A DNA stretch of 64,000 bases, taken from Eledone cirrhosa. Its lineage: Eukaryota. The stretch spans positions 62,124,001 to 62,188,000 of the forward strand of contig OZ024742.1 in the NCBI GenBank assembly GCA_964016885.1, written 5' to 3'. This document shows positions 13,430 through 61,859 of this stretch, one piece after another (within the stretch, counting starts at the first letter, position 1; each line of letters begins with the position of its first letter). Both the position numbers and the translations under genes were made by a program. The notes under the pieces are model-generated. The model was not told the DNA's origin and did no database searches. It saw only the letters and a program-made list of their open reading frames with translations.

Positions 13430-13472
13430 ACGATGTACTAGTTTCAAGCTTATTAGATATCGTCAGCATCGT
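13430..13472 (-). ncRNA. Minimal type-I hammerhead ribozyme motif
   Basis: acgatg-CTGACGA-tatctaataagctt-GAAA-ctag-TA-catcgt: 6-bp stem I, palindromic stem III (actagt), GUA site; stem II weak. Confidence 0.7.
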
Positions 13473-16400
13473 ATACCTTCCTGCCAGATGGTTGAACGTC
13501 TGAAAGTATATACTTTCTTTATGCATATTAACGGCTGAGCAGCCTAATTTTCATATCGAGTGAGTTTAGTCGGCCGGGCACACCGAAAACGATAAATGGA
13601 ATAGAATGAAACGAAATTTCATTTCTCACTCTTAGTACATACATGCATACTTACATTTAAGTAACTGCCGTACTAAGAGTGAGAAATGAAATTTCGTTTC
13701 ATTCTATTCCATATATATATATATATATATATATATATATATATATATATATATATATATATATATATATATGTGTGTGTGTGTGTGTGTGTGTGTATGT
13801 GTGTGTGTGTGTGTGTGTGTATGCGCGGGGACATAGAAATAATCGGGATGGATACCCGATCGTGCGGTTAAACTACTGGGAGTGAAGGACCCCTAGCCTT
13901 TATCAGGGCATTCTTCTAGGAGAAAGCAACTCAGGAAACTGGGATAACTCCGACATAAAACCTGCGGCTAAATAGTTACCGATTATGTTGATCTTTTCTT
14001 CTTTTCTGGTTATAGCTACTGTGTCGCTCAGAGAGTGGGATTGGCTCAGTGCACAGTCTTTCCTTACTTAAAAAAAAATCTTCAAACACAGACATTGCAC
14101 GATGACATTAATTGATAATTATTAATAATGTTATATCGTGCAATGGCCATACTCGATAACGAGGGGCAGCCATCATGTATGTATGTATGTTCAGATTCAC
14201 ATGAGTTTGTATTAGTGAATGACTGCAGTTATTCGTGCCCGTACATGCGCACGGATATATATATATATATATATATATATATATATATATATATATATAT
14301 ATATATATATATATATATATATATATATATATATATATATATTTGAGATTGGAAATCCTAATAAACTGCAGAAAGATCAGGAAGTATACATCTCGGCCTT
14401 GATAATTGGGCAGGAACCACGGACAAAACATAACAACCTAAACACAACATCGGAATAACTTCCACTATTTTTCATATCTCATTTCATTACCACTGTTAGG
14501 CTTGTTAATTTTATTTTTACTCCTGTAAATATTAGGTTGCATCCTTTATCATATCCCCCACTACTAAACATATCACCATGCATCCACCACTCTCAACCAC
14601 ACCAACACATACCGCATACCCTTGAGGCACACACAAACCACCAGCACTATACACTTCACCACAACTGATTTCATCACCTCCTTTTGTATCACTAATTTCA
14701 CCACCGTTGTTTAACATCACTTGTTTTCCCTAATACACTTTCACTCCTCTCATATCTTTTCTGCCACACGATATCATCTAGATGCACTGCTAACGCATGT
14801 ACACCCACGCTTGTTTTTTGTGTGCATATATGAATATATATATATATATATATATATATATATATATATATATATATATATATATATATATATATATATA
14901 TATATGTGTGTGTGTGTGTGTGCACAGCCATATAGTAGTATGGACCCCCGGACTATGCGCACGCATATCTCGCTACCGTGTACACAAGCAGAGACGCAGA
15001 CATATGTACAATACGTGCATGGGACGTTGTGTCCGAAAATACCTATAATTCGTATAATATGTATGTGAGCTCGTTGTGCCAGTGCAGAAGTGCAGGATGA
15101 CCAGTATGGACATTCCATATGTCCCTCCACGAGCAGACGTATCTAGTAATGTATGCCCGTGTGTCTCCGTGCATCTTCCGCGTGTGCCTGTGTGGGGTGA
15201 TGCATAACTGTATATATATTTATATTGATGCATGTGTGGATATGCATACATACGCGTATGTCTCTGGGTGCGTGTTTACACATGTATATTTATATTCCTT
15301 TTTATATTCTTTTCACACAATATGCACTGCGCAGGTATCTTGCCTCTACCCACAGTGTTTTAGCAAACTTTCCAAAAATATTTTTTTTTATAAACATTTT
15401 TTTATAGTCTTTTTAAACACTTACCTCATACCATAATTCTTTATTTCATTAATTCTTTATATATATTTTCAAACACTAACCTCATACCATTCTCATCACT
15501 TCATTAATTCTTTATAGAGCGAATCCCCTTTAACAATGTCTAAACAGCTTTAAAAAAAGCCCCACCCCAACCTAGTATAACCTACCTCCCTTATGTCTCC
15601 CCTCATTCCTTTCCACTCACTCTTCCGTGACAAACTGATGACCAGTAGAAACTCCCCTACTCCTAATACAACACCGCATTCTTTCATGTCACATCACCCA
15701 CAGCCATACAACGTCCACACACACACAGCACTTTCGCCTCACCACGTACACGCCGAAACGTCTATGACAAACCAAAACACCACACCCCTCAACTCTTGCT
15801 CCCACCACCACCCCATCACTATGTTCATACCCCCCACCACCTATCACACATATCAAAACATTCCTCATAGCTAAACCACCAATCAAAACAACATAAATTG
15901 ACCACCATATGAATGCGAAACGTTACAGACATTTCTATGCTTCATATGTTCCTTCTGTCATTACAACAGCAGAGGTCCGACGAGCTTTAGATTCCAGAGT
16001 CAGGCCAGATCGATACAGATCGTTGAACTGATCAATAGCTCTAGACCTGGCTACTGACGTGAACTTAAACATCGAGTGCTCACCTGGGTGAACCTACAGT
16101 AACTTGGTTAAACTCCCTAGATATATTTGTGTATATATATATATGTTTGTGTGTGTGGATTATTATGCACTATTGTATATAATATATATTACTATATTCT
16201 GATATTATTATAATTTTATGTAAGGGCGGTGGATTGGCAGTATCAGTGGTGGGTCGGACGCCATGCTTTCCAGCATAGAGTTATGTCCTTTTACGGTCTG
16301 AATTCAAATCCCGCCGAAATTAGCTTTGCCTTTCATCCTTACGGGGTCGATAAAATAAAGTGCCAGTAATGCACTGGGATAATTGCTGGCCTTATGCCAA

Positions 16401-17047
16401 AAGTAGAAACAATTATTATATTTTTATGTTCTGTACTTACGAACCTATGCTCGCTTGCCCATATCTAAACTATAATAAAGCAAGGGCTGCGGGACTGCGC
16501 ACGGTTTATTTCTTTTAATCCAGTTAGTAAAATAAGTTGGATTACTTTAAATAAATAATGAATGAATATTACATAATTTATGTGCTAAATTTCATAAACC
16601 AATAAATTCGTAAAAATAAATAATCTAAAATTTACTTCTTTTCAAAGTTGCACTTCCGGTATATCGTCGCCACCACCACCACTTCAACTACCATATACAT
16701 AGAAAGAGAGAGTGTGTAATGAGAGAAATAGAGAGATTATGATTTTCTACACACTGACGCGTATGAGTGTGCACATACATACATCTATATGTATGAGTAT
16801 ATAACTATAATCGCGCAAACACAAACTTATAAAAATACACACCCACGGACATAATTCACACAAATACACGTACATTCACACATACTTTCACACAAACATA
16901 CATACATTTACACAAACACACACATACAGTCATGATAGCGTTCGATTTAATTGGAAATAGGAGGGTAAAACAAGTATAACGTTTTATTTATTTATTAACT
17001 CTTTATTTATTTATTAACTATTTTTTTTAAAAACTCATTTAATATAA

Positions 17048-17527
17048 CTAGCAGAAAAACCATCCTTCGGGTGTTTTTCTGCTAGCTTGTGTAGTGTGTA
17101 TATTGATATACGCAAGTATATATGCATGTAGATATGATACATTAAATAAAACTGTAATTGACAATATACACAGAAATTGAACGAAGACTGTGTTACACTG
17201 TCTTCTGTAATCAGTAACGTAATCCATGATACATTAAAAAAAGACGATATTATATATAAACTGCATTAGGAGAAAATTAGTGACAGAAATATATGAATAT
17301 TCATTTAAACGATCGCTAACCGGAAGTGTTGACATTTGAACATTTTTAAGAAGTGAATCTTTAAATAAGTAATAAAATATATTTAATGAACAGCCACGAA
17401 ATTTAGTAGATAAATTGTGTAATATTCATTCATTATTTATTCAAAGTAATCCAACTTATTTTACTAAGGGGATAAAAAATCATAAACCGTACACAGTCCC
17501 GCGCTTCTTACTTTATTATAGTTTAGA
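17048..17527 (-). mobile_element. 480-bp non-autonomous Helitron derivative
   Basis: A|TCTAAACTATAATAAAG...hairpin (gcagaaaaacacccgaaggatggtttttctgc)-CTAG|T; second copy at 62759-63242. Confidence 0.82.
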
Positions 17528-17717
17528 TTAAGCACTATTGTACAGCCATTGATTAGATATATATAAATATAATAGCATATAAATTATGTCAGATGCAGAC
17601 ACACACACACACACACACACACACACACACACACACACATATATATTTATATTTATATATATACATACACACACATACATACATACTACACCACACACAA
17701 ATCGTTTTCCGAAGTTA

Positions 17718-59759: not shown

Positions 59760-61018
59760 TATATATATATATATATATATATATATATATATATATATAT
59801 ATATATGTTGTTATTTCTGTTTACCTTTTACATATATATATATATATATATATATATTCGACAGGATAAATACGCTGAAATAAAAACAACGATAAACCCC
59901 TATATTCCTGCAGCAAATTGCATTTGCACAGAGGCCTTGAACAGAAGCCCCCTCACTTCACCAGACAATAAATCTTTATATCGATAAATTGACAATCACG
60001 TTAACCACGTATACCCTCATTTCCATGCTCTTATATGTCTCTCATATATATATCTCATATCTCATTTTACATATGTATCACATTTTGCATCTATGTTTTT
60101 ATGTATTTTTTTTATGTATCTTTTGTATTTTTTTGCGTATTTCATATTTTGTATTTTGTGTTTTATTCCATGTGATAGAGATATTAACTATGTATTCGCT
60201 TAATTACTATGTTCCATACTGTAATTTACCCTCCGTTCTACTGTACGGTACTATCGTTCAATATGTGGATAGAATATCTCTAATATTGATCCCACTTTCA
60301 AAACTTATTAATATAATTTAAAAATCTCCCTATTTATTAGTGATTATATGTACATATATTTCTTTACTTACTTCAATCTAGATTCTAACTTGTAATTTTT
60401 TTAATTTTTTAATTTTTAATTTTTAATTTTTAATTTTTAATTTTTAATTTTTTTAATTTTTGATTTTTGATTTTTAATTTTTAGTTTTGATTTTTAATTT
60501 TTAGTTTTGATTTTTAATTTTTAGTTTTGATTTTTAATTTTTGATCTTTGATTTTTAATTTTTGATTTTTGATTTTTAATTTTTAGTTTTAATTTCCAAC
60601 TCTCATTCATAATCTTCACTGTGAAACCATAATACCTAGAAATAAGTATATTTTCTCTTAGCGGGAGATAGTCAATTCTACTGTCCATGCTTAATTTAGA
60701 GGTAGTATTGAGACCGATTGATACTCATACTCTCCCACCCCCACTGGCTTTCAGCCGGCTAGCAGTAAACTATGACCGTGTCATATTACAGGTTGGATGG
60801 GTCATTGTTTGGGTGAGAGGGGACCTGTCTAGGTGAGTTTCGTAGAACTCTGCGGTAGTTGATGGCCAACTTCCTTCGGACCTGCGCCTGCGCAGACCGG
60901 TGGGGGCGAATTGGGACTCACAAGGGAACGGGCGAAGAACCCAAGAGCACACGCTTTGTCCGTTCCCATGTCGATTCAATTTGGATTGCCTCGGAAACAT
61001 AACCTTATTATGTAACAA

Positions 61019-61092
61019 GCTGTCTGATGATGTCACGGCACTGGCGCACCGAACCGTGTGGCCACTGTCGTCATTGAAATATGTATCACAGC
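61019..61092 (+). ncRNA. Hammerhead ribozyme motif
   Basis: gctgt-CTGATGA-[stem II]-GAAA-tatgta-TC-acagc. Confidence 0.72.
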
Positions 61093-61809
61093 ATTATAAT
61101 TAAAGGACTTTAACATCTGAAACTGCTTCGCTTTTTCTTATATATATATATATATATATATATATATATATATATATATATATATATATATATATATATA
61201 TATATATATATATATATATATATCAATGTACGTATTGTATATTTAATAATATACTGTATGTTTATTCAAAAACACTTGAAGGCCTTTCGCTATAAATTTA
61301 AGGTAGTACTAACGTCACATACTTAGCTGCAGCAAAAACAAAGGGAAGTATTCGACGATGATTGTTTCTCATTGTTTAGTGGTTATCATGACTACACATC
61401 CCTTTGCATTTGCTGTAAGCTAGATTCTTATAGAACTCTAATTATGTTTATGAGCTGTTGGAACTCATTTGCATACTGAGTAGTTGCCGGCCCAGCATCA
61501 ATTAGAAATTTGTGTTGGTGCTTTGAAATAGCGATGTATATATAAATGATTTTCAGCAGCTCATAATCATAATTGGAATTCTATAAGAATCCAGCTTCTA
61601 TAGCGAAAGGCCTTCAAAATGTTTTTGCCAAATTCAAATATAAAAGAAAATTTCGCTCTATATGGCTGAATGCAATAAATGTAATCTGAGTTTTTCGAAT
61701 ATTAATAATAACATTCGATTCGTTTGCAATTATGCAAACAAGCCTCAATTTTATAGCCATGTCAGTAGAATGAACACTTCATTCTTGCTCTTGTGTTGGC
61801 ATGCGAACA

Positions 61810-61859
61810 GAACTGCAGACACTAATGTTTCTGGGTTTCAACCTTCATCAGTACAGCTC
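61810..61859 (-). ncRNA. Hammerhead ribozyme motif
   Basis: gagctgta-CTGATGA-aggttgaaaccca-GAAA-cattagtg-TC-tgcagttc; GUC site. Confidence 0.82.

Follow-up and report, generated by a model that had tools for sequence, protein, structure and literature searches.

Type-I hammerhead ribozyme motifs associated with Penelope-like elements and ORF-less companions, and a permuted hammerhead motif, in a 64-kb window of the Eledone cirrhosa genome

The stretch of Eledone cirrhosa DNA analyzed here (assembly GCA_964016885.1, contig OZ024742.1, positions 62,124,001 to 62,188,000, hereafter the window, 64,000 nucleotides (nt) in length) is animal DNA rich in repeats, has a kelch-like 10-type gene on its minus strand and contains nine type-I hammerhead motifs that are almost certainly hammerheads of the kind carried by Penelope-like elements (PLEs), together with a tenth, permuted motif. 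The nine had been listed in a first-pass annotation, and their coordinates and strands were borne out: the CUGANGA and GAAA boxes and the NUH site occur in the C-G-S order in all nine, with a stem I of 5-8 base pairs (bp). The annotation proposed at least five sequence families, and self-BLAST indeed yielded five (A to E). The motifs are as follows.

13430..13472, minus strand: family A; stem III ACUAGU; predicted cut after 13436; stem II damaged in this copy
25492..25585, minus strand: family B; stem III ACAAUUGU; long stem II; predicted cut after 25497
37831..37893, plus strand: family C; stem III AUAUGUAU; predicted cut after 37886
52822-52874, minus strand: family C, C-like subfamily; hammerhead in one arm of a head-to-head insertion
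52947-52999, plus strand: family C, C-like subfamily; hammerhead in the opposite arm of that insertion
53480-53529, minus strand: family D; type-I hammerhead
57495-57568, plus strand: family E; type-I hammerhead; predicted cut after 57563
57815..57884, plus strand: permuted (type-SGC) motif; cleavage strand first, then GAAA (57851) and CUGAUGA (57878); predicted cut after 57834
61019-61092, plus strand: family E, second subfamily; type-I hammerhead
61810-61859, minus strand: family D; type-I hammerhead

Several features attributed to these motifs need qualification. Nine motifs are present, but the insertion events number only eight, since 52822 and 52947 belong to opposite arms of a single inverted insertion (52705-53137). 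The description of the motifs as complete applies to the catalytic boxes of all nine, but a base change in the 13430 copy leaves stem II unformed in a constrained fold, and fold prediction for the 57495 copy favours a register that pairs into the core. Stem III is self-complementary in every case, although atatgtat and acattagtgt are so only if G-U pairs are allowed; the predicted stem III duplex energies range from -2.2 to -8.8 kcal/mol.

A type-I descriptor (CUGANGA, 3-90 nt, GAAA, stem III with two imposed pairs, UH, and stem I of at least 5 bp) returned exactly these nine type-I motifs from the window. The shuffle control that the annotation had proposed (100 dinucleotide shuffles in 2-kb blocks) gave a mean of 0.06 matches and a maximum of 1. 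None of the nine was matched in the window by Rfam, neither at the gathering score nor at E-values up to 10, and the Rfam hammerhead families had no match in four further loci either. A degenerate motif at 38436 (minus strand), behind a Hydra remnant at 39.5-41.3 kb, was unsupported by the other loci examined.

The annotation also suggested a very large and diverse population of such motifs throughout the genome, and this held in blind sampling, in an exact-pattern count and in the numbers of family candidates. The blind sample, 59 stretches of 10 kb at round coordinates (60 were asked for, one was absent; 590 kb in total), contained 38 type-I motifs as against 0-1 in each of 10 shuffles, which extrapolates to 193,000 per 3.0 Gb (bootstrap 122,000-269,000); two of the 38 (at L039 and L080) look atypical and were kept in the count. 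An exact pattern for the AUAU(A/G)UAU class was found in 57,614 copies versus 57 for the reversed control and, given that this class accounts for 14 of the 38 blind matches, scales to ~156,000 motifs in total. We estimate that the genome holds 150,000-200,000 type-I motifs; the descriptor undercounts, because it missed both motifs of locus L360, in which stem I includes two G-U pairs. First-look candidates numbered 2115 for family E, 825 for C, 1708 for D, 1098 for A and 2256 for B, and an exact 27-mer of family E occurs 1,557 times. The density of one motif per 7 kb is true of the window, but the genome rate is lower, one per 15.5 kb in the blind samples; nine or more motifs in 64 kb arise in 5% of resamplings, and the window is about twice as dense as the genome mean (P ~0.05). 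Ten of the 38 blind motifs lie in opposite-strand pairs and two in a same-strand pair; most copies, being single or in opposite-strand pairs, therefore have no dimer partner of their own family in the same RNA.

The accessible portions of published surveys, to which our comparisons with the literature refer throughout, report ~9,000 motifs in X. tropicalis, 4,000 in the coelacanth and 2,000 plus 1,300 in S. mansoni (PMC4209133), and more than 6,000 for a coral and 126,247 for the axolotl (PMC7229834); the latter genome, at 28.21 Gb, is ~15 times sparser than that of Eledone. Thus, this genome is likely to contain the densest hammerhead population known, with the caveat that descriptors differ between studies, and schistosome counts may be higher than the published "thousands". 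Literature searches for cephalopod hammerheads, the coverage of which excluded most subscription journals and the supplements of PMC8557442 and PMC4209133, found no paper, and hammerheads go unmentioned in the accessible part of a 2026 Octopus vulgaris repeat annotation.

Stem covariation among genomic copies, which the first-pass annotation had set as a test, is present. In 20 A-like sequences chosen by eye from the 28 distinct stem variants listed, 100% of the stem I cells are paired and 5 of 6 pairs are changed on both sides, whereas slid controls reach at most 45%; since stem I was a requirement of the descriptor by which these sequences had been selected, its pairing is in part there by construction. 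Neither stem II nor the inner pairs of stem III were imposed. With each of 30 clusters represented once, the inner part of stem III comprises 63 pairs, of which 44 are Watson-Crick and 7 are G-U, compared with 27% expected by chance, and the 30 clusters carry 23 different stem III sequences. The palindromic inner stem III reads as the signature of a helix maintained for dimer pairing. The canonical stem II closing pair (G10.1-C11.1, in what we take to be the usual hammerhead numbering) occurs in the window only in 52822 and 52947, and in 3 of the 20 A-like sequences.

In fold predictions of the nine motifs, stem III is only 1-2 bp long, or the fold with an open stem III is more stable than the monomer-active fold, in eight, and the core is sequestered in the minimum-energy fold of families D and E. 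In family D (53480-53529 and 61810-61859), the core CUGAUG is complementary to the CAUUAG of its own stem III and is paired with it in that fold; with a dimer helix of -8.8 kcal/mol, this could possibly represent a built-in off state that would be released by dimer pairing.

Published PLE hammerheads (PMC4209133) resemble those in the window in the type-I order, the palindromic stem III, the position in the pseudo long terminal repeat (pLTR) and the many families per genome, and they are likewise mostly single dispersed copies, with opposite-strand pairs 100-700 bp apart. By comparison, the stem III region here is 6-10 nt and G10.1-C11.1 is often absent, and the number of motifs, ~1.5-2 x 10^5, exceeds those reported, although the descriptors differ.

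The link to PLEs and retrozymes proposed in the annotation held: families B and C are connected to an open reading frame (ORF) that we assign to the Hydra clade by description, from motifs and anatomy rather than from a reverse transcriptase (RT) tree, and A, D and E have PLE anatomy. The accompanying statement that most copies lack an adjacent ORF is correct for A, D and E, which are truly ORF-less, but the B insertion retains an endonuclease remnant and the 37831 copy matches ORF-flanking pLTRs, so that the lack of an ORF in part reflects 5' truncation of ORF-bearing elements. The features of families B and C are these.

25427..27133, minus strand: family B insertion, a 5'-truncated, decayed Hydra-clade PLE with a T-rich 3' untranslated region (UTR), the hammerhead and an end in (TA)n
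about 26800-27131, minus strand: end of the family B GIY-YIG frame, within the 25427..27133 insertion
37752..38018, plus strand: solo pLTR end and tail of a family C Hydra-clade PLE, recognized by identity to the pLTRs of ORF-bearing loci
52777..53075, both strands: C-like head-to-head insertion with two hammerheads; C-like subfamily, only putatively linked to a PLE ORF

The endonuclease end of family B lies on the same strand, 1.3 kb upstream of the motif in the window and ~1 kb upstream in 14 of 29 other loci. By eye, the B loci carry Hydra motifs, but only C-terminal parts survive, only the 3' motif was seen, and none of the best 150 matches is an intact element (the longest open frame is 491 aa). 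Family B is an older Hydra-type element. For family C, the 37831 copy is 86-93% identical to pLTRs flanking broken ORFs at L375-L377 and 76% identical to the pLTR of the intact element at L360. The motif-to-motif period is 3.8 kb at L360 and L363 and 4.1 kb at L375; L360 contains, in order, a hammerhead, the tail, a 745-aa stop-to-stop frame, the UTR, a second hammerhead and an end in (TA)n. Its protein, a single ORF with RT followed by a C-terminal GIY-YIG and, by eye, without CCHH, has DKT, CxCX5C, CxxC and CxH as in the Hydra clade; the nearest named proteins are hypothetical proteins of Argonauta (38-41%). Another C-type element, at L050, has an inverted arm, frames running from RT to GIY-YIG, a UTR rich in T and a motif of the C type, and it ends in (TA)n. 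This subfamily is young: all 150 of the 150 matches listed for it are at 96-100%, and nine have frames of 745-748 aa. Among inverted insertions of family C, 17 of 19 pairs have one long and one short end.

These elements agree with Hydra-clade PLEs as described by Craig et al. 2021 (PMC8557442) in the C-terminal GIY-YIG, DKT, the CxCX5C linker, CxxC and CxH, the absence of a CC pair between GIY and YIG, the (TA)n target, the hammerhead in the pLTR, the tail on one end and the inverted arm. They differ in the unit length (~3.9-4.1 kb here, generally <3 kb there), in the tail (~95 nt as opposed to 30-40), in having RWR rather than RWK, and in forming a dominant young family, whereas few families are described outside cnidarians.

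Families A, D and E are represented by the following insertions.

13227..13716, minus strand: family A insertion, one 439-nt ORF-less unit plus a short inverted arm (13635-13716), between (TA)n tracts
53361..53735, minus strand: family D insertion, a truncated 434-nt ORF-less unit, with hammerhead 53480-53529
53668-53735, opposite arm: short inverted piece of family D with a truncated core
61624..61887, minus strand: family D insertion with hammerhead 61810-61859
56462..57697, plus strand: family E insertion, nearly one 1291-nt ORF-less unit; in genomic copies the fixed ends are 57619 and 57697
59857..61141, plus strand: second E subfamily, 68-78% identical, with hammerhead 61019-61092; stops at the short 3' end

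The unit lengths come from tandem copies, with periods of 439 nt (A), 434 nt (D) and 1291 nt (E). Each unit has a GC content below 50% and one type-I motif but no protein-coding capacity: the longest ATG frames are 47 aa in A, 49 aa in D and 81 aa in E, and there was no match to two PLE proteins. The anatomy, with a (TA)n target, 5' truncation, an inverted arm and two fixed 3' ends, is shared by all three families. In E, the fixed 3' ends lie 56 and 134 nt beyond the predicted cut and are both joined to (TA)n or (CT)n; among 81 distinct ends, 36 are long, 36 are short or other, and 9 continue into the next unit. Of the 22 head-to-head pairs of E, 21 join a long end to a short one; in 13 of the 22 the query dictated the long arm, and the 9 unforced pairs are all long/short. 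A repeat that we take, by eye, to be SINE-like (short interspersed nuclear element) has repeatedly inserted into an (ATT)n run immediately downstream of the E cut site (57569-57577 in the window; 4 of 30 unbiased segments) and also a similar run in copies of family D.

Metazoan non-LTR (long terminal repeat) retrozymes, for which mobilization by PLEs has been proposed (PMC7229834; bioRxiv 10.64898/2026.07.22.740005), are similar to A, D and E in being ORF-less and AT-rich with one type-I hammerhead per unit. The units of A (439 nt) and D (434 nt) are within the retrozyme-like length of a few hundred bases, and that of E (1291 nt) is outside it, exceeding the 51-972 bp range of consensus lengths in the same two sources. 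Unlike non-LTR retrozymes, A, D and E are found mostly as truncated monomers or as one to two units with inverted arms, without long tandem arrays. One further non-LTR retrozyme feature was found at loci of A (L206, L182), D (L177) and E (L009, L012, L016, L018), and in no window copy. A classical tandem retrozyme, with a 310-nt unit, stem III ACGCGU and four units in a row, is present at L012 and L157, and a faint remnant of it at 61214-61547 (minus strand) of the window.

The tenth motif of the window (57815-57884), absent from the first-pass annotation and permuted in a non-circular manner, has a stem III of 6 bp and a stem I of 7-8 bp and lies in a repeat with a tandem period of ~630-675 nt at other loci.

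57700..57940, plus strand: truncated copy of the SGC-bearing repeat, ending in (TA)n

The descriptor for this motif gave 7 matches in 100 shuffles of the window and, in the blind sample, 4 matches versus 0-1 in shuffles. The 16 distinct descriptor matches yielded an alignment of 11 sequences once four near-duplicate sister copies and one unrelated sequence were dropped; 95% of its cells are paired and 9 of 23 pairs are changed on both sides, a result reached by none of 500 shuffles. Stem I has 4 of 7 pairs changed on both sides, the changes in stem III are one-sided only, and outside stem I the changes derive mostly from two divergent sequences. A pattern for the family found at least 5,525 copies (control, 0). 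Beside the core, stem II amounts by eye to one A-U pair, and the GAAA-side strand pairs instead with the 5' leader (4 bp, 98% paired). For type SGC, cleavage was validated in vitro for sequences from metatranscriptomes, and the accessible text places the type in no known organism's genome (Eckert et al. 2023, PMC10085705). The motif at 57815-57884 shares with those hammerheads the S-G-C block order, intact catalytic boxes and extra helices tying the strands together. It differs from them in being present in thousands of chromosomal repeat copies of an animal, as opposed to metatranscriptomes only, in the single stem II pair next to the core and the pairing with the 5' leader, and in that cleavage here is predicted.

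Two larger features surround the motifs.

5769..44774, minus strand: kelch-like 10-type gene, with exons near 44774-43788, 41961-41812, 32237-32013, 31102-30830 and 5882-5769
53752..56378, minus strand: PLE family F, RT and C-terminal GIY-YIG, with a frame remnant at 54761-56065 and an inverted arm at 56081-56378

The motifs of families A and B lie in the sense orientation in a 25-kb intron of the kelch-like gene, and 37831 is antisense to it. The best named homologues are molluscan, with an argonaut on top, which makes an octopod host likely. Family F, presumably Neptune-like, has a unit of ~4.7-4.8 kb, and many copies (full copies, L100-L109) possess an intact 784-aa RT-GIY-YIG frame with a CX4CxxC linker. 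A 455-aa upstream frame overlaps the 784-aa frame in the -1 frame at a TTTTTTA heptamer conserved in 11 of 11 copies, which suggests a programmed frameshift; no downstream stimulatory fold was predicted at this site. The sense strand of full-length family F copies lacks CTGANGA, and no hammerhead was detected in the family; together with the lack of a match to the D and E units, this led us to reject the element at 54761-56065 as the parent of the neighbouring D and E motifs.

Decayed PLE frames were also detected at 39573-41325 (minus), 12415-12765 (plus) and 11672-12058 (plus). Elsewhere (L057, L065), RT of the 11672 type occurs ~1.7 kb upstream of a hammerhead of the AGAACU/AGGACU type, pointing to a putative additional motif-bearing PLE clade. 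Short palindromic insertions into (TA)n with PLE-like inverted anatomy and no complete type-I motif occupy 30452-30648, 35953-36130, 53140-53359, 36316-36575, 58108-58232, 62277-62395 and 27530-27569; in the 36004 family, a CTGAAGA...GAAAC sequence adjoins the junction. In addition, the window contains a broken Helitron (Helitron_like_N, PIF1 helicase; 20044-23190, plus) in an intron of the kelch-like gene and a GC-rich tandem array (17700-19015) with a 27-nt-like period and open frames on both strands.

For the movement of these elements, we lean slightly toward a mechanism that combines dimer cleavage, host ligation and target-primed copying of a unit-length RNA circle by PLE enzymes. Two motifs of one tandem transcript would pair through the palindromic stem III, and both would cut; a host ligase would join the ends into a unit RNA circle; and the RT-endonuclease would break (TA)n and use two fixed sites of the RNA for priming from both DNA ends, sites proposed for E to be 56 and 134 nt past the cut. 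Such priming would account for the one-short-one-long head-to-head insertions. Copying would then run through the cut site, with the circle as the template. In E, the cut site is 5' of both priming sites, and the majority of copies continue across it; a monomer cut at both ends, if linear, cannot template such copying, so that the template would be either a circle or a transcript in which the last motif is uncut. The distance from a motif to the fixed 3' ends that follow it is 50-300 nt, and the majority of copies in the genome are dead single ends. Published work lends support to low dimer cleavage and to the circle model, which was proposed there (PMC4209133, PMC7229834), and truncation, partial tandems, inverted arms and a tail on one end are all part of PLE anatomy as described in the accessible literature.

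A series of observations weighs against this mechanism. The stem II closing pair is G-C in only 2 of the 30 clusters (judged from the first and last letters), and families A, D and E have a U-U or A-A mismatch at this position. The monomer-active folds of the nine motifs are predicted to lie 2.3-8.3 kcal/mol above the minimum, and the dimer helices of AUAUGUAU and AUAUAUAU (families C and E) are weak, at -2.2 and -3.2 kcal/mol. Insertion 5' ends do not pile up at the E cut site: none of 30 unbiased E segments, picked irrespective of how far they reach upstream, began at +1, and among these 30, four are of the SINE-like-repeat kind and two are one short palindrome. An apparent pile-up of seven distinct segments at +6 to +14 was dropped as a sign of cutting in vivo because four of them abut the tail of the SINE-like repeat in (ATT)n. 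In a search by sequence for their autonomous partner, A, D and E matched none of the Hydra, B and F elements significantly, and the most intact young PLE of the window, family F, spreads without a detectable hammerhead. In the accessible parts of the published work, the minimal hammerheads of PLEs cut poorly even as dimers (PMC4209133), 8 of 9 Xenopus dimers did not cut, and it has been proposed that hammerheads merely parasitize PLEs.

Among the alternatives, the most serious, though unlikely, is a linear template, with the hammerhead trimming the 5' end of a read-through transcript (or cutting slowly), the downstream motif remaining uncut and partial tandems arising from linear multimers, with no circle. 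The priming sites 3' of the downstream motif are equally well explained by an uncut 3' motif, the 9 of 81 E ends that cross into the next unit could come from uncut multimers, and the predicted dimer helices are weak. However, 5' trimming should leave insertions that start at the cut site, which no unbiased E segment does at +1, only 2 of 79 alignment rows of family D began at +2, and circles are documented for related animal retrozymes (PMC7229834). DNA alone does not separate these two models. Somewhat less probable still is that the motifs are kept as a folded signal bound by the RT protein, or as passengers that parasitize PLEs, with negligible cutting. The non-canonical closing pair of stem II in most families, the core sequestration in D and E, the spread of family F and of published Naiads without a canonical motif, and the poor cleavage in print (PMC4209133) all fit such a role, but all 30 clusters retain NUH and the catalytic boxes even though their stems have diverged completely, stem III is still palindromic in its 23 different sequences, and identical boxes are kept in the rewired order of the SGC family; a mere binding signal is disfavoured because it would not need the catalytic bases.

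That the host has recruited these ribozymes to regulate the kelch-like gene or other transcripts, as the sense orientation of A and B in its 25-kb intron might indicate, appears very improbable: A and B do not stand out from the large repeat families to which they belong (1098 and 2256 first-look candidates), stem II is damaged in the A copy, the stem III palindromes of A and B differ, and six of the nine motifs lie outside the span of the mapped exons. Finally, the lack of an Rfam match and the resemblance of stem III in C and E to (TA)n could suggest chance matches in AT-rich, palindrome-rich repeat DNA, but this explanation has virtually no probability left and is refuted by the shuffle controls (9 versus 0.06 in the window and 38 versus 0-1 in 10 shuffles of 590 kb), the reversed-pattern control (57,614 versus 57) and the covariation.

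The nine motifs are additions to a published kind of system (PMC4209133, PMC7229834, PMC8557442, as far as their accessible portions go); what stands out in Eledone is the number of motifs, the presence of intact young Hydra elements alongside ORF-less dependants, the rule of one long and one short end, and the tenth motif with its permuted order. Taken jointly, these findings would describe the densest hammerhead population (one motif per 15-20 kb), run by intact young Hydra-clade PLEs together with ORF-less parasites, with a monomer-active SGC form, rewired within that repeat community, in at least 5,500 chromosomal copies and priming of both ends of a DNA break at two fixed sites on one circular RNA; this combined picture is tentative, and we consider it possible but somewhat short of probable.

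The role of hammerheads in PLE movement is unknown according to the accessible reviews, and this genome supplies material on which it can be tested: intact autonomous elements with two motifs (the 745-aa Hydra frames), young ORF-less units that would have to borrow the enzyme, and family F, a young PLE seemingly without the motif, as a natural control. The strict one-short-one-long end rule constrains the mechanism. If the SGC motif cuts, it would, judging from PMC10085705, be the first such ribozyme in an animal genome. At a density of one motif per 15-20 kb, a motif would be present in the majority of long introns, so that even weak cutting could matter for host RNA.

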